Source: a virus. From it: 64,000 nucleotides of DNA. Where the stretch lies: positions 20,402 through 84,401 of IMG/VR virus record IMGVR_UViG_3300032299_001015; one strand, written 5' to 3'. Both the position numbers and the translations under genes were made by a program. Of the stretch, positions 19,101 through 64,000 are shown piece after piece (the first letter of the stretch is position 1; every line of letters starts with the position of its first letter). The notes beneath the pieces were generated by a model. That model was not told the DNA's origin and did no database searches. It worked only from the letters and a program-made list of their open reading frames with translations.

Positions 19101-21003
19101 TAGATGTACTTAATTTTCTTAAAGAAGTTTCATATGCAGACATTACCCCAACAAGTCTCTTCATTGCTGTTTCTTGGGTTGTAAAAGATGCTGTAAGATT
19201 GTCTACTCCAAATTTTGCCGCCATAACCTCTGAGTTGAGAAGTTCAAATCTTTCAACTTTAAGGCCAGACATTCTAGCGCCAAGCCTAGTAACCATCATT
19301 CCAAATTTAAGGCCATTGGCAATTAAATTACCAAATAGACCAACCAACATAATAATTGGTCCTGCCAAAGCAGCAATAGCAACACCTAACTTGGCAAAGT
19401 TTTTAATTGGCCCTGGTAAATCTTGGAAGAATCCTGAAAATTTTTGAATGCCTTCGCCAATAAATGAAAGTATTGGAATCAATGTTTCTGTGAGGGCCTG
19501 ACCAATAGGCATGATTGCATTCTTTAAATCTTCCAAGGTTCTTTGGAATTTAACTGCGGTTGATTCTGTGAGAGTTTTAATTTCTTGATTTGCTACTGCC
19601 GCCAAATCAGTAGAACTTTTTGCCGCTAATTCTATTACTGATTGTGTCTGAGATCCTGTTCTTCCAATATTATCAAATAGAGCAGAAACTCTGGCAAACT
19701 GATACTTACCAAAAATTTGCTCAATTACTCTAGATCTTCCAAATTCATCCAGACCATCTAGAGCATTCTTCATAGCATAAATTGTGGGCATTAACTGGCC
19801 CTTATTTGCATCAACAATTCCTACTAAATCTATACCAAACTTCTTAGCCACCTCACTAGCCTGCTTTGTTGGATTAATCAGGGAGGCGAGGCCAGATTTT
19901 AATGCATTCGCTGCTTCTGCGGCTGGGATGCCACCCTCTCGCATAGCCACAAGTAGAGTTGCAAGATCTTTAACATCTCCACCTAAACTTCTAACTACTG
20001 GACCAACTTTAGGAATAGCAGTTGATAAATCTTGAAGAGTTGCAGATGTTTGGTTTTCAACAGCGTTAAGGAAGTTAATTGACTCTGCTAATTCATCTGT
20101 ATTAAGTCTGAATGCTGACTGCAGGGCAAGAGTTGCTTTCATTGCTTCTTGTCTATCTACTTCACCAAGGACCGCCAATCTAGTGGTTTGCTGGACAGAG
20201 TTAATCAGATCTTCGCCTTCTGCTCCAGTTGCAGCAATATCTGCAGCAAGAGCGGCAGTATCTTTAGCAGCGATTCCATAGGTACGAGATATTTCGTAAG
20301 CCAATTGTTGAATTTGTTCTCTCATGCGAGTAGTTGACTCACTAATTGCGCCACCAAGATCAGAACCATAAACCTTTTGGAACCTTGTCAATTCTTTGTC
20401 AAGGTCTCTGAACTGTTTAGAGGCTAAGGCTGTAAACATCGCCAAAGGAATGCTAAATCCAACCATCAGTTGGCGACCAGCCCACTGAGTATTTTTACCC
20501 CAGTTAAGCATAGATGTGGCACCGTTGTCAATTAGTTGATTGAAAATAGAAAATTTTTGAGCAGCCATTGCTGCAGAGTTTCCAGTAGCAGCAATAGATG
20601 TAGGGGTAAGCATCATCATCTGCCCACCGCCCATTGGCACAGAAACAGACTGCTGGTATCTAACTTGCTGTTGAGCAAGTTGCTTCATTAAACTATTTTG
20701 CTTTGTATATCCTGCAACTGCTTCACGGAATGACTCTCGCATAGTCAGGCGGTTGGCAGCAATTTGCTTACCAAAATTTTCTACGGCATTATGAGCCTGT
20801 ATTGTTTTAGCAGTAAATCCACCAATTTGTCCAACACCAGTAGCAAATGTTGCTGCTAGGCTTCTTTGCGCTGAAAGAGCAGATTTATCTAAGGTGTTAA
20901 AGGCAGCACTTAAAGCGCTAATCTGACCAGTAAGTGCTTTAATTTGAGCCTGGGCAGGAGAAAGGTTCGCGTTATATGTAATAACTGAATTAATATTAGC
21001 CAA
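13177..21003 (-). CDS. tape measure protein with C-terminal amidase_2 and lysozyme/SLT-like domains
   Basis: 2608 aa; TP901-like TMP core; coiled coil; HHTAG..EVES..HKDW amidase motif; IAMRESGG..GIFQLN transglycosylase motif. Confidence 0.92.
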   Translation of the reverse strand: MANINSVITYNANLSPAQAQIKALTGQISALSAAFNTLDKSALSAQRSLAATFATGVGQIGGFTAKTIQAHNAVENFGKQIAANRLTMRESFREAVAGYTKQNSLMKQLAQQQVRYQQSVSVPMGGGQMMMLTPTSIAATGNSAAMAAQKFSIFNQLIDNGATSMLNWGKNTQWAGRQLMVGFSIPLAMFTALASKQFRDLDKELTRFQKVYGSDLGGAISESTTRMREQIQQLAYEISRTYGIAAKDTAALAADIAATGAEGEDLINSVQQTTRLAVLGEVDRQEAMKATLALQSAFRLNTDELAESINFLNAVENQTSATLQDLSTAIPKVGPVVRSLGGDVKDLATLLVAMREGGIPAAEAANALKSGLASLINPTKQASEVAKKFGIDLVGIVDANKGQLMPTIYAMKNALDGLDEFGRSRVIEQIFGKYQFARVSALFDNIGRTGSQTQSVIELAAKSSTDLAAVANQEIKTLTESTAVKFQRTLEDLKNAIMPIGQALTETLIPILSFIGEGIQKFSGFFQDLPGPIKNFAKLGVAIAALAGPIIMLVGLFGNLIANGLKFGMMVTRLGARMSGLKVERFELLNSEVMAAKFGVDNLTASFTTQETAMKRLVGVMSAYETSLRKLSTSNPALFVPGVAPAPRGAVPIRRQAGSTRPEFVPGSGRGDKIPAMLEPGEFIVNRAATEKYAPVLMQMNRGTLKGYENGGGTSRLAHLTRSVTVPITSAMDSATSGARRVLQQMLADGITEVKLFNNLVVSLSKATNDALNTEVEGKGVKKSILAAELKDRERWSLMMKATGLSFDQLQPTITGITSAMARLEGELINDPQLYRLVEAELVKLSNAGDIAAQRLLALSKQYGTVEYLRTNEGKERPGRMALGVSTSGTGTYKGSRLAADSWARKSTVDLERALDEGVVRAIQSSSPSKKADSIGEKAGKNIGNGAIIGLERGLRIATSKQVRTGPIGPGLESRSTATVYQREENARKLLEKALIKETQQTGLIADTKQRIVVQQKQHNIVLANWTKDLETGRWVHKDGTVAGTKRAAALDKLAQEESLLAAEEKKLRDIISIRERAERNAANAAESKAIAEKQLNQSIVKRSVQEGTMFTPGSYLMGGVSPYAASGANRPSRFGDISMDQRKALAAQRREAYLNNVGPGKSLTDARGSGGMRGAGAMNAAMGASMLASTVTMFSGATSEASSKIMMFTTALTTAIFALQAFSGTGIGGGIVGGVKKMGGGMAGLGARATAAAAGRGALTAGLLGGGGKALTGIGGALAGGGAAAAGTVAAVAIPLVITAAGLYMYKKSLDEAKEKANAAFAEPAKTAEFFGKTIDSLGSALENIQAAGASKELSSINSELRMAVSEDYAGLIEKLKTSVTTVGAADLGAAYTKMIISGMSAQEAQDAIKAISAEAGYKGGIAFASAFSNGLLEAKTIEEAYQQTVDNISPESVAGQQTAASEAMRQQAIDNPGLYGRSTPQVASRNFKNVLAGGPEFVQALKSSIEISQTAPELVAQNLDKIRESYLALNEDAGDILGMGTSAREMAFDEFKNMMGELDDPVINQLLDQLQNSTAETQALAIQMTALGVPLTEAKNAAGQFDDALARAAIENASRLATLNAALDDTKQALLDFADSSPITIAMDDISESVDKMQDKIESYAKSREKEKESIQENFELEQKAREDSLEAMQDEMDIKKESFDEEMDQLDEKSDKIEKSSDAYIKSLQKNQKADSFYAQQRNTAFGALQKLASGDVFGFLQDREQMSQDAQQFSYDEQISGIEERRDLELEAIDETRSEKQKEQEEYEKMMQDRMDSIQDLMDKESEMHETNMKNYDDETEKHNEELERRLENRSSKNQEAKDIIDGIKNGEIESYKEVTKVFGEQLAKRYADLVKNQIASLDAVLKQQVAAGDIERLDAEKQLVQMYNDLFGAAYFGGTPTSNSGYGGVGSYEDLRGKLGLSSFLPPIPKKNLPNVAYGGYISGPGGPKSDVIPAMLSNGEYVVQASSVSKYGKDMMDTINAGKFADGGPVELKKSLDKWIPKNRLSYYSSWDQYGSWPGGKPSGIMMHHTAGVGPGVLEWMARNPEAGKPVVQAMVGRDATAHILAYGGTGWGAGAGGTEGSYAAEIFNNKEYAGLKEDLKNLGGASNTLWQIEVESQGLKKDFTAGMFDTIARMSAAIKEYAGWPSFDGKIINHKDWAAASGPNRPNGQRGDTLYPLGLYQSNADRIWEQGGGETSETNRGETSETNNGGSGASSVQITPSIAAPKKGLFGILSMAGTPVSDKQSNSNNNGSTNEPTGNIQFSNIPDGYTVEDANRTLGHIRAGGWPTNLQRLAWSIAMRESGGRNIYDTGDYGIFQLNKPSYGSQPWWISDDKILNDPVYNSSVAYKNVSQSGKNFLPWAMRVDNNGNYSWDWSYYNPRPTWADATETRTAAFWNSWKYKASGGIMKLSAGGGAVSGPGGPRSDMIPAMLSNGEYVVKASSVAKYGKGFMDQVNAGQFGMGGLATTAPRMVSPAKYAGGGFVGSMSTATPTFGVPQVETINPSSMNANIANSYGGSNSSSVRNSSKVNIVINGAGGKSSNAIANKVISMINQANGRRNHSRSAG

Positions 21004-55937: not shown

Positions 55938-56378
55938 TTACCTTTTAAGGTAATCTATAGCGCTTTGCAAAAATTTTATATTGTCTTTAAACTGACCCAA
56001 TCCATTATTGCAATGTCTACAAAGAAGTCCACGAATCTTTCCTGTGGCATGACAATGATCAACATGTGCAGATTTATTAATGTCAGAATTACATATAGCA
56101 CAAGAATAACTTTGAGTCTCTAATAAGTTAAAAAATTCTTCCTTAGTTATTCCATAGAATAACTTTCTTCTTGTCCATAAAGATGAGTCTTTAGATGCCT
56201 GGGGATTTAACTCCCGCCACTTTTTATTCCTACTGAGCGAACATTCTTTGCAATATGCAGACATAAGATCTTTTCTTCCTTTATCTTGGTAGAAATCATT
56301 TCTATTTTTTACAGAGTTGCATAAACTACATTTCTTACTTTGCCTATTTGGATTAATTGTCATATAACTATTATACAC
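55938..56378 (-). CDS. endonuclease VII-domain (homing-type) nuclease
   Basis: CAIC..HVDHCHATGKIRGLLCRHCNNGLG; probable leaderless start at MTIN. Confidence 0.85.
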   Translation of the reverse strand: MYNSYMTINPNRQSKKCSLCNSVKNRNDFYQDKGRKDLMSAYCKECSLSRNKKWRELNPQASKDSSLWTRRKLFYGITKEEFFNLLETQSYSCAICNSDINKSAHVDHCHATGKIRGLLCRHCNNGLGQFKDNIKFLQSAIDYLKR

Positions 56379-56726
56379 AAAAAGATTAACACTTTTATTT
56401 TGAACAAATGTTAGTGGCTAGCGAATTTGTATAATACACGATTTTAAGTAAGATTTTCCCAATTAAGTAGTGCGCCCATACGTCATGGCATATGTCAAGC
56501 CGACACGCCGACATTATGCGGATTGTTATAAAGGTGTCTCATTCCAGCATAATGCGGATTCTATAGTTATCATCCTGTTACCTAGGCATGTCCGATTTGT
56601 ATGCGTTTCTAGCGTCTCAATGTCAGACCCCCATGCTAGGATCTACCTATAACTGAATATCTCCTAGGCAAATAAGCCCCATGAGGGATGAGCCCTAGGC
56701 CACACCGTAAGATAGAAAGGCTAGAC

Positions 56727-56921
56727 ATGAATACTCAGGCATACAAGGGTATTGCCCCTCGCACTACCGCCGCGCTTCGTGCGCGTCGCTCATTGGTCGC
56801 TCGTATTGGAAGCGATGCTGTCGCTGCACAGGATGCGGAGCGTGTGGACTACTACCGTGCGCTGATCGCGCAGGCTAAGGCTGCAGAGCGTAGACTGTCA
56901 GACCCTAGTGATAAGGTGTAA
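56727..56921 (+). CDS. hypothetical early protein
   Basis: GAAAGG SD; MNTQAYKG...LSDPSDKV. Confidence 0.7.
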   Translation: MNTQAYKGIAPRTTAALRARRSLVARIGSDAVAAQDAERVDYYRALIAQAKAAERRLSDPSDKV

Positions 56922-56923
56922 TC

Positions 56924-57019
56924 ATGAGAACATTCCTGCAGCACGTTACTTCATTCGTCATCATTAGCGGTATCCTTACCGCTATGGCTATCGTTGGTGG
57001 AATAGAGGGAGGCTTCTAA
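56924..57019 (+). CDS. small membrane peptide (31 aa), leaderless
   Basis: MRTFLQHVTSFVIISGILTAMAIVGGIEGGF. Confidence 0.6.
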   Translation: MRTFLQHVTSFVIISGILTAMAIVGGIEGGF

Positions 57020-57276
57020 TGATTACCCGCGCAGAAGGTATCGTCAATGCTAAGGCTAAGATCGCGCATCCTATGGCCGATGAGGTTTCTATCGCTATGG
57101 GGCAGGGAGCGTATGCACGCTTTCCCTATTCCGTCGAACTTGCATTCTTCAAGAATGGAGATTGGGTAACTGAGCCTCTGCCAGAGTTTGCTGCACTCTA
57201 CTCTAATGAGGTCTACCCCTATGTCCCGCTGATCTACTTCGCACAGTTCCTTGAGAACTACGGCGCGGGAGGGTAG
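57019..57276 (+). CDS. hypothetical protein
   Basis: TAATG coupling. Confidence 0.65.
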   Translation: MITRAEGIVNAKAKIAHPMADEVSIAMGQGAYARFPYSVELAFFKNGDWVTEPLPEFAALYSNEVYPYVPLIYFAQFLENYGAGG

Positions 57277-57281
57277 TAGCC

Positions 57282-57308
57282 AAAAACCCTTATAAATAAA
57301 GGGTTTTT
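57282..57308. terminator. bidirectional intrinsic terminator
   Basis: AAAAACCCTT..AAGGGTTTTT. Confidence 0.65.
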
Positions 57309-57517
57309 CAGTACTTGACAAATCGCTTCTGCGGGGCCGGGCCGCGAATCGGACATATCACCTAGGTTACGATTACGTTACGATGATCACGAATTACGGC
57401 ATGTCGATTTGACAGACATATTGGACATATCACCGTTACCAACCTGTTATGAAAGTTGTCCGTTTTGTATACATTCTGGATTAGGTAATGTCAGACCCCT
57501 AGTGTAGAGTCAGAGAC

Positions 57518-57676
57518 ATGAACAAGCAAAGAGTATGGAAGTACCAAGTAACCCTTACCGATCACCGCTCCTTCGTGGTGTCTGTCTTCTCCGCTGACCG
57601 TGATCCTTCCACGGTTGTCCGTCCCGAATTGCGGGACATGATCCTTGACGTAACTACCCTTGAGAGTGTAGGTTAG
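57518..57676 (+). CDS. hypothetical protein (52 aa), leaderless
   Basis: ATG 7 nt after TAGAGT. Confidence 0.65.
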   Translation: MNKQRVWKYQVTLTDHRSFVVSVFSADRDPSTVVRPELRDMILDVTTLESVG

Positions 57677-57680
57677 TACC

Positions 57681-57965
57681 ATGATTGATTCAGTAGATCG
57701 TATCGTCACCACTCCGATTAGAGAGTGCCCTCCACTAGTTGAGGCCGTTGTCCTTACGGATAGCCCTATCCTAAATACTTTTTGGGTCACCATCGAACAA
57801 GATGGGCCTACCGATTACTTTGTAATCACTGAGGTAATTAGTGGATATGAGGAGATTGTATCTGGCTCTACTGTAGTAAAGTGGCTCAAGCCTGAGGACA
57901 TGAATGACCCCGTGATTCAGGCGGAATTGGTAGCGGGACTGGCTTCTATGGGATTGGAATTCTAA
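57681..57965 (+). CDS. hypothetical protein
   Basis: TTGACG-N18-TAGGTT-N6-ATG. Confidence 0.65.
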   Translation: MIDSVDRIVTTPIRECPPLVEAVVLTDSPILNTFWVTIEQDGPTDYFVITEVISGYEEIVSGSTVVKWLKPEDMNDPVIQAELVAGLASMGLEF

Positions 57966-58147
57966 TGTTTGATCTTCACGACTCCCGCTCAGGATTGACG
58001 TATCGCTGGAATCAATCCCACGGCGTGAGTATCTATAACCGCGAATGGGAAGAGATCGACTACTTCGAATTTGGATACATGGCAGATGGATCGCGCCCTA
58101 CCTTTGTAGAGTTTTGCGCGGCGGTTTCTAGGAGGACTAGTGAGTAA
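57965..58147 (+). CDS. hypothetical protein
   Basis: TAATG coupling. Confidence 0.6.
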   Translation: MFDLHDSRSGLTYRWNQSHGVSIYNREWEEIDYFEFGYMADGSRPTFVEFCAAVSRRTSE

Positions 58148-58337
58148 AGTAATAGAACGCCGTCCATTCGATATCAATATGACAATGCAATGGAATGACA
58201 TTCAGGAATTGCTCACACGATGCAAGCGCATGTGGGCATGTGCTGAGAATCCTGGCGACTTCCAAACTTTGGAAGAATTGGAGAAGTCTCTACACATTCT
58301 TGCGGAGAATATTCGAACTAGACTTGACAAATCCTGA
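58140..58337 (+). CDS. hypothetical protein
   Basis: AGGAGG SD; ends inside a TTGACAA arm. Confidence 0.6.
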   Translation: MSKVIERRPFDINMTMQWNDIQELLTRCKRMWACAENPGDFQTLEELEKSLHILAENIRTRLDKS

Positions 58338-58441
58338 AAGACGGGCCGGGCCGCGTTTTGAAAATGTTATATAAATAATTACGTTACGACTTGACAAGTA
58401 ACGGGAATTTTGATAGGTTCGACCTGTCGAAAGGAGATATC

Positions 58442-58567
58442 ATGGGTTCTGTCATTATTCCCGTCGCGTGTGACTGGCACGCAGTCTACTCCATCCATGA
58501 GGATGGCGTATGGTATGGCCTCTACTGCGAGGAGTGTGATGAAACCTACCCGCCTGTGGCGGAGTAG
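58442..58567 (+). CDS. small Cys/His protein (41 aa)
   Basis: AAGGAG SD; CDWH..CEEC. Confidence 0.6.
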   Translation: MGSVIIPVACDWHAVYSIHEDGVWYGLYCEECDETYPPVAE

Positions 58568-58629
58568 GCCCCGGCTCGCTGTCAGACCCCTGTGCTAGTC
58601 TTACGATACACATACGAAAGGACACGAAA

Positions 58630-58761
58630 ATGGCTCGCTGTGAAGATTACCCGTGCTGTGGACACACCGATGGCCTTGGCTGCAACTATGCCCCCGATAT
58701 GGAGGCAATCTATGCCTCTGTCCAGCGCCGTCTTGATGACGACTACTACGACTACTACTGA
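58630..58761 (+). CDS. small Cys-rich acidic protein (43 aa)
   Basis: GAAAGGA SD; MARCEDYPCCGH..DDDYYDYY. Confidence 0.65.
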   Translation: MARCEDYPCCGHTDGLGCNYAPDMEAIYASVQRRLDDDYYDYY

Positions 58762-58874
58762 AAGGCCCGGCCTGAAAATCTTCACATTGTCAAGTCTTAC
58801 GATGTGAAATACGACACACACGAAAACGGTCACGGGGATGCCTGAGTGTCAGACCCCTATGATAAAGTCATCCT

Positions 58875-59021
58875 ATGAGTGAAAGTACAGAGATGCATTA
58901 TTACCCCGCCGACGAGGATTGGTTCGCTCGTCACCATGACGAGATGGAGGCTATGAAGTTGGGCCTTGACCTTGACCCTAACCCTTGGCTGTCAGACCCC
59001 CATGATAAGGTGAAGCCATGA
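58875..59021 (+). CDS. hypothetical protein (48 aa), leaderless
   Basis: ATG 6 nt after TAAAGT; ends LSDPHDKVKP. Confidence 0.55.
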   Translation: MSESTEMHYYPADEDWFARHHDEMEAMKLGLDLDPNPWLSDPHDKVKP

Positions 59022-59155
59022 CCAACTACTACCGCGTGTTCTACTTGAACCGATTCAAGAAGGCATTCAATACCCGCGATAAGGCTCTGAAGTATGTTTC
59101 CTCTCAGGACGTACCTGAAGACTATGAGATTCTAGATTGGAGTGATGAACTGTGA
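59018..59155 (+). CDS. hypothetical protein (45 aa), leaderless
   Basis: ATG 6 nt after TAAGGT. Confidence 0.6.
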   Translation: MTNYYRVFYLNRFKKAFNTRDKALKYVSSQDVPEDYEILDWSDEL

Positions 59156-59307
59156 AGTGCAATAAGTTTGGCGTAGAGTTTGAGAAGGCATGGCTAGATA
59201 ACTACTACATGCTTGGCGACCATGCTTTCGACTATGCGCGATGCATGTATCTGGATGACGGCACTCTGATTGTCGATGGGGTGCGCTATGAGGAGGTGCC
59301 TTTCTGA
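59152..59307 (+). CDS. hypothetical protein (51 aa)
   Basis: GTGA and TGATG overlaps with neighbours. Confidence 0.55.
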   Translation: MKCNKFGVEFEKAWLDNYYMLGDHAFDYARCMYLDDGTLIVDGVRYEEVPF

Positions 59308-59522
59308 TGTGGCAGGATGGTGCAGCGTGCAAGGATGCGGATAGCAATCTTTTTCTTAGTGGTGTGACCTCGCGTGTAGAACAGGCTAAGAAGATTTGTG
59401 CAACGTGCAGCGTTGTGCAGGAGTGTCTAGAGTTTGCAATTCGCAATGAGGATTTTGAGCCTCATGTCTATGGTGGAATGACAGGTCAAGAAAGACGGCG
59501 TGTTTCCTTGACAAATGCCTGA
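59307..59522 (+). CDS. whiB: WhiB-family Fe-S transcription factor
   Basis: WQDGAAC..LF..AKKICATCSVVQECLEFA..VYGGMT.QERR. Confidence 0.92.
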   Translation: MWQDGAACKDADSNLFLSGVTSRVEQAKKICATCSVVQECLEFAIRNEDFEPHVYGGMTGQERRRVSLTNA

Positions 59523-59613
59523 AAGTGGGCCGGGCTGCAATTCCAAGAATACTCATAGATTTACGACCTCTTACGATTTGACACGGGGATCACGGTCATG
59601 ATAGGATCACTCT

Positions 59614-59760
59614 ATGAGTAATCGTGTCAGCCCCCGCCGTAGCACGGAGCATAATCGTATCGTTGTTGAGCGTCGTCGCTCTAATGCCGCGCAGCCTCAT
59701 AAGAATAAGGCCAAGTATTCGCGCAAGGACAAGCATCGTAACCGTTTCGTTACCGACTGA
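59614..59760 (+). CDS. small very basic protein (48 aa), leaderless
   Basis: RRRSNAAQPHKNKAKYSRKDKHRNR; TTGACA-N18-TAGGAT-N6-ATG. Confidence 0.7.
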   Translation: MSNRVSPRRSTEHNRIVVERRRSNAAQPHKNKAKYSRKDKHRNRFVTD

Positions 59761-59809
59761 TCCCAATATTCCCCCTTTCAATGTCAGACCCTAGTGCTAG
59801 GATCATTCC

Positions 59810-60367
59810 ATGATTACAGTTACCGCCCCTGAGGGCACACTCGCATACGCTACCTACGCCGCTCGCTTTGAGAGCCTTATCATGACCGCCACCCTTTCGC
59901 AGACTGAGGCTGCTAGCGTCTGGTACCATGACGCCGCTGCCGTTGCCTCTGAGGTTGCTCGTAACCTTGGCACCTCGCTTGAGGTTGGCGCGTCTATCGT
60001 TGCAGCATTCTCCCCGCGTGAGCGCTGGTCCACTAACGTCGCTAAGGCTATCGCGTACTCGCTTGGCTCGCGTCCCGCTGGCCTTGGCAATAATCTCCGC
60101 ATGGCTGACGCATCCGTAGCGGCAGGCTTTGATGCGCTCAAGGGTCAGAAGACTAACGCTTTCGCTCGCGCTATCGCAGGCGACACTAACGCGGTTGTCA
60201 TTGACGTTTGGATGATGCGTGCGGCAGGCATGGAGACTGACTCTCCTAATAAGACTCAATACGCTCTACTGTCTGAGGCTGTTGAGTCCGTTGCTGCACA
60301 GTTTGGAATCACACCGCGCACCGCGCAGGCTCTTATTTGGATCATCGTGCGAGGGGGTGCGGCGTGA
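59810..60367 (+). CDS. HhH-glycosylase-like phage protein (DUF7178-like)
   Basis: WY..AAFSPR..W..N..KT.AF..VVIDVWM..Y..TPRTAQALIW. Confidence 0.6.
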   Translation: MITVTAPEGTLAYATYAARFESLIMTATLSQTEAASVWYHDAAAVASEVARNLGTSLEVGASIVAAFSPRERWSTNVAKAIAYSLGSRPAGLGNNLRMADASVAAGFDALKGQKTNAFARAIAGDTNAVVIDVWMMRAAGMETDSPNKTQYALLSEAVESVAAQFGITPRTAQALIWIIVRGGAA

Positions 60368-60424
60368 ACGATATCACGCTAGAGAACTTTCGGGAGATGC
60401 TGCGCGATTTTGTGGGAGTGTGAT

Positions 60425-60502
60425 ATGGAGATTTTTCTCGTAACTATTGCGCTATTTCTAGGTATTGGAATCCTGATAGGCCTACTTGACAAAAGGCCCT
60501 AA
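60425..60502 (+). CDS. small membrane peptide (25 aa)
   Basis: MEIFLVTIALFLGIGILIGLLDKRP. Confidence 0.45.
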   Translation: MEIFLVTIALFLGIGILIGLLDKRP

Positions 60503-60671
60503 AGGGCCCGGCCCGCAAATCCTAATCTTGTCAAGTATTTACGACGACATTTAAGAAGTCACTGGAAATTGTCACTGAAATGTTATCTAAATAATCTAAT
60601 AGAAATCCTTGAGACTGTCAGACCTAGAGTGTATAGTTCTTCTATAAGTTCAATCAACTAAGGAGATACAT

Positions 60672-61667
60672 ATGGCACACGCAGTAGAGGTTGGCGCTAA
60701 CGGCGAGCAGGCTTTTGCTTCCTTCCGCGAACCCGCATGGCATGGTCTTGGTACCGTGTTCTTTGAGGAGAAGTCCACCCGCGAGATGCTGGATGCGGCT
60801 TACCTTTCCAACTGGAACGTCCGCCTTGAGGCCGTTCCTTACCCTTCCACCTACAATGTCATCACGCCTTCCTACATGGTACTGCGTGACAATCCCTTTG
60901 ACCAGGGTACTGACGTTCTCGCTACCGTTGGCGAGCGTTACCACGTTCTTCAGAACGAGGATCTTTTCGACTTTGGTGATGCGCTGCTTGACGGTGGTCG
61001 CTGGGAGACTGCTGGCTCTATTCGTCAGGGTCGCGTTGTGTTCGGTTCGCTTGCGCTTGAGCGTAAGACTGTTCTTGATCCCAAGGGCGTGTCGGATGTT
61101 GTGAAGTCCTACCTTCTTGTCCACACCTCGCATGACGGTTCTACCGCTGTGCAGGCTTCCATCACTCCCGTCCGCGTTGTGTGCCAGAACACTCTCAACA
61201 TGGCTCTTCAGGGTGTGAAGCAGTCCTTCAAGATTCGTCACACGCAGACCGTAGGCGGTAAGGTCATGGCTGCACGCGAGGCTCTTTCTCTCGCCAATCA
61301 GTACCTCGACACCTTCGACAAGGAGGCTCAGGCTCTCATCGCCAAGGAGATCACCAAGGCTAAGTTCGATGCCATTCTTGAGGCTGTCTACCCGCGTCCT
61401 GAGGCTGATGCTAAGGGTGCTGTCAAGAAGTGGGAGACTAAGGTCGATCTGCTGGAGGAGATTTACTCTTCCGATACCACCAACATGATCGCAGGCACCG
61501 CGTGGGGTGCGTTCAATGCTCTCACGGAGCGTCTGGACTGGTTCCGCAAGGGTCGTGGCGAGCGGGGTGCTGAGAATGTTCTCGCTGCCGCTAGCGGTTT
61601 CGATCCTGTCACCAATGCGGAGAAGGGTCGCATCCTGAAGGCTGTCAAGGAGATCGCCTTCGCGTAA
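60672..61667 (+). CDS. DUF932/DUF945 (LGT_TIGR03299-like) protein
   Basis: MAH..PAWHGLG..YHVLQNE..ETAGS..SHDGS..TPVRVVCQNTL..GTAWGAFNALTE. Confidence 0.88.
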   Translation: MAHAVEVGANGEQAFASFREPAWHGLGTVFFEEKSTREMLDAAYLSNWNVRLEAVPYPSTYNVITPSYMVLRDNPFDQGTDVLATVGERYHVLQNEDLFDFGDALLDGGRWETAGSIRQGRVVFGSLALERKTVLDPKGVSDVVKSYLLVHTSHDGSTAVQASITPVRVVCQNTLNMALQGVKQSFKIRHTQTVGGKVMAAREALSLANQYLDTFDKEAQALIAKEITKAKFDAILEAVYPRPEADAKGAVKKWETKVDLLEEIYSSDTTNMIAGTAWGAFNALTERLDWFRKGRGERGAENVLAAASGFDPVTNAEKGRILKAVKEIAFA

Positions 61668-61704
61668 GGCTATCCTGACATGGATGCCATGTCGTGGTAT
61701 CCTA

Positions 61705-61732
61705 ACATCCTGGGCATGATGTAAAACTGCCC
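61705..61732 (+). ncRNA. H-type pseudoknot motif, copy 1
   Basis: ACATC-CT-GGGCA-T-GATGT-AAAAC-TGCCC. Confidence 0.6.
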
Positions 61733-61735
61733 CGA

Positions 61736-61803
61736 TCCACCCGCGCTGGGCGCAGACGGGCCTCCAAAACCTGTCGGGCAGAGTTCGATCCTCTGGGGTG
61801 GGG
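61736..61803 (+). tRNA. atypical compact tRNA-Trp(CCA)-like RNA
   Basis: TCCACCC/GGGTGGG acceptor; GCGC-TGG-GCGC mini D arm; CTCCAAA loop; CAGAG-TTCGATC-CTCTG T arm; discriminator G. Confidence 0.65.
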
Positions 61804-61974
61804 CTTGACAAATCTAATAAAAACGGGCCGGGATAAATAATTCATTTTGTCAATATTTACGATTACGATTAAGAAATCACAGGAATATTTCACAGGAATT
61901 TTTAAGAATGCACCCTTGACGATCACGGCAATATCGTGTACTTTAGAGGCATAACTGAAGAGGGGAGGAAATAG

Positions 61975-62184
61975 ATGGGTGAATACCTAGTTGTTGATAA
62001 GTTATATGGGTTCTCTATAGAACATAATGATATTCTCCGCACCGCCGACGGAAATGAGATAGTCGTTTCCTTTGTAGATTCGGTGGAAGGAGGGTATGAT
62101 ATTCACTATAAAGACCTTGACGGAGAGGAAGATATCTACCACCTCCCCGAAGATGACATGATCGACCTACTCATTCTAGAATAA
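61975..62184 (+). CDS. hypothetical acidic protein
   Basis: GGAGG SD. Confidence 0.65.
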   Translation: MGEYLVVDKLYGFSIEHNDILRTADGNEIVVSFVDSVEGGYDIHYKDLDGEEDIYHLPEDDMIDLLILE

Positions 62185-62194
62185 GGAGAAACAA

Positions 62195-62350
62195 ATGGCT
62201 AAGAAGAAGGAAAACAAGTTCTCATATCTTGAGACTTGGAACACTCGCTACGGGGTTCAGACTCGTATTGTCACCCGCATTGATGGCAAGTTCGTTGATT
62301 CAACACCCGCACTTGAGACACTCCGCAAGGGCGTCCCTGCTGGTCGCTGA
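62195..62350 (+). CDS. hypothetical protein (51 aa)
   Basis: AAGGAG SD; MAKKKENKFSYLETW... Confidence 0.65.
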   Translation: MAKKKENKFSYLETWNTRYGVQTRIVTRIDGKFVDSTPALETLRKGVPAGR

Positions 62351-62358
62351 CCAGTTGG

Positions 62359-62389
62359 GCGAACCTGGGCATGTTCGCTAAAACTGCCC
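62359..62389 (+). ncRNA. H-type pseudoknot motif, copy 2
   Basis: GCGAAC-CT-GGGCA-T-GTTCGC-TAAAAC-TGCCC. Confidence 0.6.
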
Positions 62390-62467
62390 AATGCGGTTGA
62401 GATCCTAGTAAGTTGTGGGATAGGTTATGTAGAGGATCTGCGATGACACTCCCCACACACCGCATAA

Positions 62468-62548
62468 GCCTGAGTGGTGGAATTGGCAGACACGCACGAC
62501 TCAAAATCGTGTTCCATTGGAGTGTGGGTTCAAGTCCCACCTTAGGCA
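62468..62548 (+). tRNA. tRNA-Leu(CAA)
   Basis: Class II cloverleaf; CACGA-CTCAAAA-TCGTG. Confidence 0.92.
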
Positions 62549-62616
62549 CATAAAGTCTTGACTAATGTCAGACCCTCATGATAGAGTTTCACTACCTACT
62601 ACAGAAAGGCACTCTC

Positions 62617-63006
62617 ATGGGTGACCGCGCTAATTTCGGACTTCGACAGGTCGATGGCAACATCATCTACGTCTACGGACATTGGGCAGGCGAGGGTATG
62701 CTTGCTAGGTTTGCTAATGCTCTTGACCGTGTTCAGGATGCTGGACGCATTGACGACCAGGCTTATGCTAATCGCATCATCATTTCACGTTTGGTTGGCG
62801 ATGCATGGTCTAGTGACTATAACTGGGGTGTTACCGTCAATTACCTTACAGACAACGAGCATAAGGTTCCTGTCTTTGACTTTGCATTCAAGACCGTTAC
62901 TCTCTATGACTATGACTGGACGGCGGGAGTGCTGACTGATATCATTGTAGAGTTCTCGCTGAACGAGTTCATCAACAAGTACGCTAATACCTTGATGGAG
63001 GTGTGA
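62617..63006 (+). CDS. hypothetical protein (MGDRANF..YVYGHWAG)
   Basis: GAAAGG SD downstream of a promoter box. Confidence 0.7.
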   Translation: MGDRANFGLRQVDGNIIYVYGHWAGEGMLARFANALDRVQDAGRIDDQAYANRIIISRLVGDAWSSDYNWGVTVNYLTDNEHKVPVFDFAFKTVTLYDYDWTAGVLTDIIVEFSLNEFINKYANTLMEV

Positions 63007-63007
63007 C

Positions 63008-63430
63008 ATGATTGATCCTAGTATGACTGACATTCATCCATTCCCGCCCACGATGCAGGAATTGGAGCGGCAGGTCATCGAACTTCAGAGCAATCTGGAT
63101 TCTATGACCGCTGACCGTGATTTCTGGCAGGGTAAGGCCCATGAGCGGAAGTTGATGATTGACAACCTTGAGGAATACATCAAGGATCAGTTTGACTACA
63201 TTGATGAGAATGTATCTCAGAGCATTGTCGATATCTTTGGTTTCAATATCACCAAGGACTACGATGTGACAATTACCGTCACATTCTCTGGTATTGTGAC
63301 TGCTCCTCTCAATTTCGACATGGATAGCCTTGAGGATTCTCTGAATGCTAGTCTTGATGTGTCCTACTACAGCGATCTAGAGTCTGATTTCTCAGAGGAT
63401 CATATGGAGATTGACTGGACAAAGAGTTAG
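63008..63430 (+). CDS. hypothetical acidic coiled-coil protein
   Basis: GGAGG SD. Confidence 0.65.
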   Translation: MIDPSMTDIHPFPPTMQELERQVIELQSNLDSMTADRDFWQGKAHERKLMIDNLEEYIKDQFDYIDENVSQSIVDIFGFNITKDYDVTITVTFSGIVTAPLNFDMDSLEDSLNASLDVSYYSDLESDFSEDHMEIDWTKS

Positions 63431-63437
63431 TAAGGCC

Positions 63438-63513
63438 GCTCCCATCGTCTAGAGGCCAAGGACGCCGCCCTTTCAAGGCGGTAGCACGGGTTCGAATCCC
63501 GTTGGGAGTACCA
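63438..63513 (+). tRNA. tRNA-Glu(UUC), CCA encoded
   Basis: CCGCC-CTTTCAA-GGCGG; canonical T arm. Confidence 0.92.
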
Positions 63514-63747
63514 CCCTAGGGGGAATGTGCGGCACCCGCCACCAACCCCACCATGCCGCGCGCCCCCTAGGGTCCATCTGGGCGGAGGAGAGTGACGGTC
63601 TCCTCTCCTCCGCTCTCCCAATACCCGGCCCCAAACTACCCTATTTGTCAAATCATATTTACGATCATCTTACGAAAGTCACAGGAATTTTCGCTGGAAT
63701 ATGTCAGACCCCTCTGCTACGATTTATCTATACATCTAGGAGGAGAT

Positions 63748-63888
63748 ATGAGCAATCCATACGTTGTAGAGGTAACGTGCATGGTTCTTGTCCATGCCGA
63801 AGACCTTGATTCTGCCACCGACTCTGCTATCGCAGAGTTGGAGGAGATCGCCTTTGACATTGACGTTCTTTCCACTAAGCCCTGGTAG
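63748..63888 (+). CDS. hypothetical protein (46 aa)
   Basis: AGGAGG SD. Confidence 0.6.
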   Translation: MSNPYVVEVTCMVLVHAEDLDSATDSAIAELEEIAFDIDVLSTKPW

Positions 63889-63896
63889 GAGTAAAC

Positions 63897-64000
63897 ATGG
63901 CAACCATCACATTCTCAGTAGAACTTATCTACGAGGGAACTGGTCACTTTATGGATTTTGAATATGACTATGAGACTTGGGATGATATGACCCAAGAGGA
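63897..64000 (+). CDS. hypothetical protein (partial)
   Basis: AGGAG SD; open to window end. Confidence 0.55.
   Translation, partial: MATITFSVELIYEGTGHFMDFEYDYETWDDMTQE

Follow-up and report, generated by a model that had tools for sequence, protein, structure and literature searches.

What does a repeated palindromic module do between the small early genes of a phage, and do genes move at it? The question is raised by a 64,000-nt stretch of IMG/VR virus record IMGVR_UViG_3300032299_001015 (positions 20,402 to 84,401 of that record; hereafter the window), which is the last 64 kb of a linear virus contig of 84,401 bp rated 69% complete. An original prediction, made from the letters of this window, had described intergenic modules with inverted TTGACAA and TTGTCAA arms around a CCGG core, and had proposed that they delimit gene cassettes exchanged by site-specific recombination or nicking. 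Taken together, our results lean, slightly beyond even, towards another reading, in which the modules dock proteins, act as control and boundary elements for early operons and are at the same time hot spots of recombination, in the manner of the promoter-early stem-loop (PeSL) motifs of T4-type phages. Reordering, gain and loss of units would most likely result from ordinary recombination between repeated control sequences rather than from a dedicated cassette enzyme, and a multi-protein operator, which had been named as an alternative, fits better than a recombination site.

The module array

The pattern TTGACAA-N(10-20)-CCGG was searched on both strands. Nine matches were found, all within 57315-63651, where 0.15 were expected from dinucleotide shuffles; the rest of the 84,401-bp contig held no further match, and the reversed-pattern control gave 0. 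The nine arms make up seven modules: two are complete, three have only the left arm and two only the right arm. All seven modules that had been described were thus reproduced with their coordinates and arm states, and the array is restricted to the early block of the contig. The sequence GGCCGGG occurs seven times in the window, each time in one of these modules. Their core, GGCC-S-GGCC, is rich in guanine and cytosine (GC), is conserved as sequence and is centred on the module. An eighth, armless core (GGCCCCGGC, 58566-58575) lies immediately 5' of a promoter-like site at 58580 and is the sole CCGG of the block outside the seven modules. Both module orientations occur, although the array is transcribed from one strand.

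The complete modules, M5 (60486-60534) and M6 (61805-61853), each span 49 bp, as had been claimed. M5 is made of an arm, a hairpin GGCCC-TAAA-GGGCC, the core CCCGGCC and the second arm, and contains the inverted repeat TACTTGACAA/TTGTCAAGTA; M6 lies immediately 3' of a tRNA-Trp-like gene. M1 (57315-57343, + strand) consists of the left arm TTGACAA, 13 nt and the core GGCCGGGCC, without a right arm, and follows a hairpin at 57283-57309 (AAAAACCCTT..AAGGGTTTTT). Left arms are likewise followed by a core in M2 (58324-58352, + strand, GGCCGGGCC) and M4 (59508-59536, + strand, GGCCGGGCT), while M3 (58764-58793, - strand) combines the core GGCCCGGCC with the right arm TTGTCAA, and M7 (63623-63651, - strand) the core CCCGGCC with a right arm, 3' of a tRNA-Glu gene and a strong hairpin (63583-63617). 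As also stated in the original prediction, upstream genes often end at the left arms: open reading frames (ORFs) with the C-termini LDKS (terminating within M2), LTNA (a WhiB ORF, terminating within M4) and LDKRP, and a tRNA-Trp called by ARAGORN (61736-61804), abut or overlap them. This tRNA (69 nt, anticodon at position 29) was not called by the Rfam tRNA model even at E = 0.1 and may therefore be atypical or reduced.

Downstream of the cores, the described succession of TTACGA, a TCACNGG word and a promoter was found again. TTACGA copies begin 26-31 nt past each core and are followed by TCACNGG words and then by a promoter-like site; the hexamer has 12 copies on the + strand of the 7.5-kb block and 12 in the remaining 56.5 kb. 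All accessory boxes are on the + strand. For M1 (57367-57395) they are TTACGA at 57367 and 57378, TTACG at 57373, and GGACATAT at 57351 and 57423; CGGACAT-type boxes also adjoin the palindromes of the Streptomyces phage Samisti12 described below. M3 (58797-58836) is followed by TTACGA at 58797, TACGA, and TCACGGG at 58830. The M4 boxes (59561-59607), with TTACGA at 59561 and 59571, overlap a canonical promoter, TTGACA-18-TAGGAT. M5 (60539-60580) has TTACGA, TTAAGA, TCACTGGAA and TCACTGAAA. Behind M6 (61857-61945) stand two TTACGA, TTAAGA and two copies of TCACAGGAA, then a promoter TTGACG-17-TACTTT, and behind M7 (63659-63729) two TTACGA, TCACAGGAA and CGCTGGAA, then a promoter TGTCAGACCCC..TGCTACGAT.

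Ten promoter-like sites (56621..63729, + strand) consist of the box TGTCAGACC(CC) and an extended -10 (TGnTAnnnT). They start at 56621, 56896, 57489, 58580, 58847, 58990, 59782, 60616, 62566 and 63702, and the combined pattern has 10 matches, exclusively on the + strand, where 0.33 were expected. Together with three canonical TTGACA-17/18-TAnnnT sites 3' of modules, also predicted from sequence, they give each unit its own promoter-like site, and the modules bound self-contained units, as had been claimed. In relatives, TGTCAGACC is found directly 3' of a -35 TTGACA and 5' of the extended -10. The box is better conserved than the -35, suggesting a promoter class that depends on a factor. It lies ~10 nt from the -10, too near for a -35, and the real -35 is weak or absent; at several of these sites an ATG follows 6-8 nt past the -10 (leaderless).

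The arms are an exact match to the sigma-A -35 consensus. For all nine of them, however, the -10 position falls on the GC core, and a consensus scan made no promoter call at any arm. Since their -10 position is taken by the core, the arms are not sigma-70-type promoters, which agrees with the original prediction. Two further candidates were rejected: on inspection, the right arm has no acceptable -10 as a rightward -35, and TTGTCAA(G/A/T)(T/A) fails the CACA part of the DnaA consensus, so that the arms are not DnaA boxes.

The cores of this phage do not behave as RNA structures either. Windows of 34 nt placed on them fold like shuffles (z from -1.05 to +1.62), with M6 and M7 unfolded, and the fold at M5 (z -2.78) comes from the neighbouring GGCCC-TAAA-GGGCC hairpin. 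No core received a terminator-like call, a TTTT tail is present at M2 alone (GAAAGAC-core-TTTTG), and the genuine terminator hairpins lie upstream of the left arm. A terminator or hairpin function of the core in this phage was rejected because of the shuffle-level folding and the lack of terminator calls. The entire module as a single long RNA hairpin was rejected as well: the spacers are non-complementary, the arms never covary and five modules are one-armed.

The core sequence stands out against the composition of the genome. CCGG is avoided in the 84-kb contig (13 observed versus 123 expected), as is AGCT (0 versus 232), and 8 of the 13 CCGG sites are the seven module cores and the armless mini-core. 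The sister lineages L015, L012 and L011 (related loci are cited by L numbers, and the contig and five relatives by G numbers) have the same avoidance pattern and 0 CCGG, and their cores are free of it, which indicates that a GC dyad is required and not CCGG as such. L022, L043 and L053 purge CGCG and/or GCGC instead, suggesting different host restriction systems.

Conservation of the module and order of the cassettes in relatives

In order to define the anatomy of the module, 60 related loci were compared. The elements follow a fixed order: a gene end, tRNA or terminator hairpin, the arm ACTTGACAAA, ~12 nt, the GC-rich dyad core, again ~12 nt, the arm TTTGTCAAGT, TTACGA/TTAAGA boxes, C(A/T)GGAA-type boxes and the promoter. 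Distant relatives have tandem TTATCCACAGG (consensus DnaA boxes) in place of the C(A/T)GGAA boxes; no consensus DnaA box is present in the window's own modules. Of 20 distinct two-armed modules, 16 measure 47-50 bp from arm to arm irrespective of the core, and in the complete genome G002 every two-armed module measures 48-49 bp and is confined to 93.7-102.8 kb. The core itself differs. It is GGCC-S-GGCC in this phage, L009, L010, L013, L014 and L016, CGGTG-N4-CACCG in G002 (L015), GGCGCGCGCC in L067, and GCGGGG-CA-CCCCGC in L012 and one L017 module. Among the orthologous M5 modules of the six genomes of the first type, the boxes are kept and the spacers vary, as in a footprint. The comparison thus indicates that arms and spacing are family-wide, whereas the GC core is lineage-specific and travels with the backbone and not with the cassettes. 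In relatives, many cores are good hairpins whose stems differ yet remain complementary, several with loops of 0-2 nt. Such short loops, the invariant arms and spacing without covariation, and the occurrence of both orientations point to protein recognition of double-stranded DNA.

A related arrangement was found in Samisti12 (NC_042012, L069), a cultured phage of Streptomyces cluster BE1. Its palindrome GTCSGGNYCSGAC has 23 strand-wise matches, solely inside the two copies of the terminal repeat, and is placed 3' of a TTCG-loop terminator hairpin and 5' of each early promoter. CGGACAT boxes and TTACGA + C(A/T)GGA composites are common to Samisti12 and the freshwater phages. TTTACGA-N(13-15)-TTCC(C)AGGA composites, three to four in number and in early-gene orientation, are found in the non-coding genome end of Samisti12 (1-902), and the same TTACGA + C(A/T)GGAA box pair accompanies each module of the freshwater phages.

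The units between the modules are shuffled. Had the relatives kept the same gene content, with breaks unrelated to the core, the idea of exchange would have lost its ground; instead, at least four orders of the same units occur among 13 close relatives, and several junctions fall at the core. The window and L009 share the order c0 c1 c2 c3 c4 B C c7 (c2 is missing in L009); L014 and L016 have ... c4 C B c7, L015, L025, L066 and L067 c1 c0 c1 c4 c3 (c2b) C B, and L017 and L018 c0 c1 c0 c4 C B. Cassette B (60512-61804, + strand) comprises a promoter, a DUF932 gene (60672-61667), a gene-end RNA motif and the tRNA-Trp-like gene. Cassette C (61854-63622, + strand) holds two small ORFs, a tRNA-Leu gene, an internal promoter, two ORFs, a tRNA-Glu gene and a hairpin, and c2a + c2b (58351-58765, + strand) are two promoter-plus-tiny-ORF units (40 and 43 aa). 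Assembly errors are an unlikely source of the different orders, because exact identity between modules stays below 14 bp and every order was seen again in independent samples.

B is located after C in 12 relatives, and the swap of B and C could be followed in same-core genomes. Block B is homologous to L010, L013, L014 and L016 from 60505-60507 on, inside the M5 core. The L009 module between B and C unites the left half of module Z and the right half of module X of L016, and the crossover is confined to at most 12 bp of the core (GGGGCCGGGCCG), with unrelated flanks. Several junctions with same-core relatives fall at -4 to +9 nt from CCGG. At M3, homology to L009 begins at 58766 and homology to L014 ends at 58772; breaks were located at 59527 (L016) and 59541 (L009, L014) for M4, and at 63604-63612 and 63658 for M7. 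At M6, homology stops at 61810-61815 and resumes at 61853 in all close relatives.

Population variants gave a similar picture. In the variant of run X2, 58338 is joined to 58766 via CTTTGGGC, which forms a single complete 50-bp module from the M2 left arm and the M3 right half; in this phage, by comparison, a 428-bp cassette with two genes splits the module at its core. Both c2a and c2b are absent from the X2 variant and from L009, and c2b is found elsewhere in L025, L066 and the strain of run X18. In other variants, a 40-nt full module links 58335 to 59559, 60506 is joined to the mini-core at 58570, and 58768 to 58579 with the mini-core as the junction point. These variants were seen in assembled contigs, and the joints that go back are compatible with circles or rearranged strains. 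Run X18 is an RNA library, whose assembled pieces are no proof of transcription.

The distribution of 52 distinct homology breaks against five same-core relatives was then evaluated (BLAST segment ends, accurate to a few bases). The density is 0.038 per nt within 10 nt of a core (6 in 160 nt), 0.036 at gene or tRNA edges (20 in 555 nt), 0.019 in promoter boxes (7 in 375 nt), 0.017 in arms and spacers (6 in 352 nt) and 0.002 inside genes (10 in 5,048 nt), a pattern of recombination at all conserved boundaries. Crossovers are not confined to one point of the site, and core-to-TTACGA segments are also exchanged independently. Against lineages with other cores, block B is homologous from the promoter box (60600-60608) to the left arm (61814-61815). 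The proposal of cassette exchange at the cores is thus borne out in part: relatives reorder, gain and lose units, same-core junctions lie at the core and variants join half modules there, but gene edges are as rich in breaks as the cores.

Exchange reaches beyond close relatives. Compared with G002 and G004, the median protein identity is 49-50% for backbone ORFs and 77-78% for early-block ORFs, with 95% for the DUF932 protein and 100% for one small ORF, which indicates that early cassettes are shared between otherwise distant lineages. The early block behaves as a compartment that evolves separately and is exchanged.

The early block and its setting

The source virus is an uncultured, lytic freshwater actinophage related to the Streptomyces cluster BE phages. 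From position 1 to ~53,500, the window carries large minus-strand genes at 34-41% GC, including one for a tape-measure-like protein of 2,608 aa, and the gene direction is + from ~54,400 on. The GC content jumps from 32-40% to ~50% at ~56,470, directly after a minus-strand ORF of the endonuclease VII family (55938-56378; PF02945, E = 1.5e-25), which is itself of low GC and marks the border between backbone and early block. The GC-rich (~50%) early-gene block then extends on the + strand from 56470 to 64000, where the contig end truncates it. An assembly chimera at the GC jump was ruled out, as a single Logan contig from the source run crosses it; the same junction in L009, L014 and L016, which come from other metagenomes, and the equal GC rise of the Samisti12 repeat also exclude it.

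The early character of the region, claimed in the original prediction, is supported by synteny with the terminal repeat of the Streptomyces BE phages. The DUF932 protein (331 aa, 60672-61667) is 56-57% identical to proteins of cluster BE1 phages. In the cluster BE1 records, its gene is found at ~1.2-2.4 kb and in two copies per record, which places it inside the ~11-kb direct terminal repeat reported for this cluster in the Samisti12 genome announcement (PMC5764925). Samisti12 has a matching gene order (ThyX, endonuclease, a run of small genes, DUF932, non-coding end), with HNH/endonuclease VII genes at the matching border of its repeat, and its repeat exceeds the backbone by ~10 points of GC, as the early block does here. 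By this synteny, the block is probably part of a long terminal repeat. The GC-rich block of L009, the closest relative, is ~11.5 kb long and closes in an AT-rich non-coding stretch with TTACGA, TCACTGGAAT and DnaA boxes, so that the window holds no more than the initial ~7.5 kb of the block. In relatives, the distal end of the early block, which here would lie just past the contig end, carries clusters of consensus DnaA boxes, often as pairs 2-3 nt apart (L011 5184-5544, L012 6928-7287, L017 11448-11884, L068 3764-4200 and L009 14253-14720).

Early-block ORFs are mostly without Pfam or PHROG function. A nucleotide search of the phage collection gave no match, with relatives appearing at the protein level only, and an Rfam scan returned tRNAs only. 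A gene-end RNA motif, CCTGGGCATG-N(4-6)-AAAACTGCCC, was observed at 61709-61732, after the DUF932 gene, and at 62364-62389, before tRNA-Leu. It has 108 copies in related loci, on the coding strand throughout, and its stems covary (GAGCA/TGCTC 44, GGGCA/TGCCC 25, AAGCA/TGCTT 5).

Readings of the array and known systems

How could a control element also be a place of gene exchange? We propose that a lineage-specific, backbone-encoded DNA-binding protein docks on the central GC dyad; a host factor is less likely. What points to a backbone-encoded reader is that the core type goes with the backbone. Family-wide or host factors would dock on the -35-like arms and on the TTACGA and C(A/T)GGAA boxes, and the docked factors together would set early transcription or switch it off, and shield neighbouring units from one another. 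Because the same boxes stand between every unit, the modules would also be places of ordinary recombination: short-homology or homologous recombination at the recurring boxes may swap, insert or delete promoter-equipped cassettes, and the usual selection-filtered breaks at gene edges may add further viable genomes with reordered, gained or lost cassettes. Recombination would then be a by-product kept by selection, since each exchanged unit brings its own promoter.

Several observations weigh against this interpretation, which was drawn from sequence predictions and assembled contigs. It leaves the role of the -35-like arms unexplained, and the arms are optional (one arm in five of the seven modules, none in the mini-core); core-to-promoter distances vary as well. 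The B/C crossover, within at most 12 bp and between unrelated flanks, is short for ordinary homologous recombination, and the cores are among the two hottest breakpoint classes per nt. Moreover, no core-binding protein could be named by comparing gene presence with core type, because genomes with other cores differ across the entire backbone.

The reading closest to the original prediction is a dedicated site-specific recombination or nicking system in which a phage enzyme of another or an undescribed family exchanges cassettes at the central CCGG. The 49-bp module would then be the full site, and the half modules and armless core would be hybrid or partner sites, comparable to the conversion of attP and attB into attL and attR or to integron sites. 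A dyad of 47-50 bp that has inverted arms on the outside and a small palindrome at its centre does resemble the attP sites of large serine recombinases. Such a system would account for the X2 variant, with one complete module where this phage has a left half, the 428-bp cassette and a right half, for the B/C swap and the L009, L014 and L016 junctions a few nt from CCGG between unrelated flanks, and for a core sequence retained despite genome-wide CCGG avoidance; an endonuclease VII-family gene at the block border could be added to these. We nevertheless consider it unlikely. The absence of a recombinase, noted for the window in the original prediction, extends to the whole contig (G000) and five relatives (G001-G005, two of them 100% complete), in which PF00589 (tyrosine) and PF00239 (serine) recombinases had no match while controls were positive, other nuclease and transposase families not having been systematically searched. 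Plain gene edges equal the cores in break density, promoter boxes and arms are also common break positions, different-core lineages exchange at promoter box and arm, and core-to-TTACGA segments are swapped alone. Every cassette has its own promoter, unlike integron cassettes, and arms are often missing. The site-specific recombinase part of the prediction was thus not sustained. An undescribed machinery without a known recombinase, in which a backbone-encoded, lineage-specific protein would read the GC core and arms and cut or exchange DNA at the centre, so that early host-takeover genes would circulate in promoter-equipped cassettes between lineages of ~50% core-genome identity, seems to us quite improbable. 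Should a dedicated enzyme nevertheless act at the core, the array would represent a novel type of gene-exchange system.

Three other explanations were considered. The modules could be docking sites for DNA entry or host takeover, that is, stops or anchors of the first-entering DNA or sinks for host factors, without a part in promoter control. An injection stop would be expected once and not per operon, a downstream promoter is tied to every module, the modules of the window are without a consensus DnaA box, and to our knowledge two-step injection is not known for this phage family; we regard this explanation too as unlikely. In its favour, the block matches a long terminal repeat by synteny, TTACGA + C(A/T)GGAA composites are also present in the non-coding first 700 bp of the Samisti12 end, and in relatives there are modules in which consensus DnaA-box pairs replace the right arm, and clusters of such boxes that close the early block. 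This parallels the DnaA-box region (iss) of the T5 terminal repeat, with eight paired DnaA boxes, for which a docking role of this sort has been proposed (bioRxiv 10.1101/866236). It is very doubtful that the core acts at the RNA level as the stem-loop (terminator or attenuator) of a PeSL-like element, with the arms as incidental promoter leftovers. PeSL stem-loops are G/C tracts (PMC2839356), the centres of relatives are often hairpins with varying but complementary stems (TCGGTG-CCGC-CACCGA, GGCGGGG-CA-CCCCGCC), stems of the NNNNN-GAAA-NNNNN type stand beside the arm in relatives, and M2 has GAAAGAC-core-TTTTG; but the cores here fold like shuffles, several central palindromes have loops of 0-2 nt, modules are found in both orientations in an array transcribed from one strand, arm sequence and 47-50-bp spacing are conserved without covariation, and the real terminator hairpins stand upstream of the left arm. 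Least probable in our estimate is a tie of the cores to host nucleases, as retained CCGG targets, decoys or Chi-like signals that stimulate nearby recombination on the first-entering DNA. The avoidance of CCGG and AGCT reflects restriction pressure, and yet 8 of 13 CCGG are cores, which occur in both orientations and differ between lineages. However, L015, L012 and L011 share the avoidance with 0 CCGG, showing that CCGG itself is not required, and the fixed distances from core to arms and from core to TTACGA would be unexplained; we also know of no Chi sequence for these hosts.

No part of phage genomes is less understood or changes faster than the early host-takeover genes. In a large actinobacterial phage family, from uncultured freshwater phages to cultured Streptomyces phages, these genes are kept in a compositionally distinct block of promoter-equipped cassettes with a conserved module as the joint. 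The cassettes move between lineages at ~50% core-genome protein identity, and the central core of the module remains with the backbone. The defined DNA sites in cultured cluster BE phages offer a handle for finding the factors that control early transcription. A literature search found no published description of the module motif in actinophages, nor of the Samisti12 palindrome.

The array can be compared with four known systems. It shares with the Samisti12 repeat the ThyX and endonuclease border, DUF932 near the end, small early genes, the GC excess of ~10 points over the backbone, one GC-rich palindrome per intergenic region that is restricted to the repeat, and the CGGACAT and TTACGA / C(A/T)GGA boxes. 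The Samisti12 palindrome differs in being a compact 13-15-mer (TGTCGGGCCCGGACA) directly 3' of a TTCG-loop terminator, without TTGACAA arms 35 bp apart, and its TTACGA composites are at the genome end and not at each module. T5 (Davison, bioRxiv 10.1101/866236) is likewise a lytic phage of siphovirus type that encodes many tRNAs and has its early genes within a long terminal repeat. It also has conserved arrays in which inverted repeats, palindromes and fixed spacers are combined, and DnaA boxes in pairs (here in relatives, at the distal block end). It has three discrete non-coding repeat regions, whereas here there is one module per operon and the modules of the window lack a DnaA box. With the attC/attI cassettes of integrons, the array has in common small units bounded by imperfect palindromes with a conserved core, in varied orders and contexts. 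In contrast to integrons, no integrase was found, the cassettes often comprise several genes and tRNAs besides promoters of their own, junctions also fall outside the core, and the sites are fixed-length double-stranded dyads where attC is a folded single-strand site.

The closest parallel is with the PeSLs of T4-type phages, composite repeated promoter/stem-loop motifs in hyperplastic early regions that mediate insertions, deletions and swaps by recombination (Arbiol et al. 2010, PMC2839356; Comeau et al. 2014, PMC4122927). Here too, a composite intergenic motif is repeated together with an early promoter of the host sigma-70 type (as predicted), is concentrated in a plastic region of small genes mostly without annotated function, gives each unit its own regulation and is found without a dedicated recombinase; among close relatives, units are inserted, deleted, replaced or reordered, and the junctions lie in the motifs. 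The differences lie in the phage, an actinophage related to Stanwilliamsviridae and so of an unrelated group, and in the element, which is unrelated in sequence: a dyad of 47-50 bp whose inverted arms are -35-like and whose GC core is lineage-specific, with direct-repeat boxes of two kinds behind it. In this phage its core lacks the stable stem-loop by which PeSLs are defined, and the element is placed upstream of the promoter and not inside it. The similarity opens the question whether gene shuffling at regulatory repeats, as at the T4-type PeSLs, is a general phage rule. By analogy, the array appears to be functionally PeSL-like while standing outside the PeSL sequence family.

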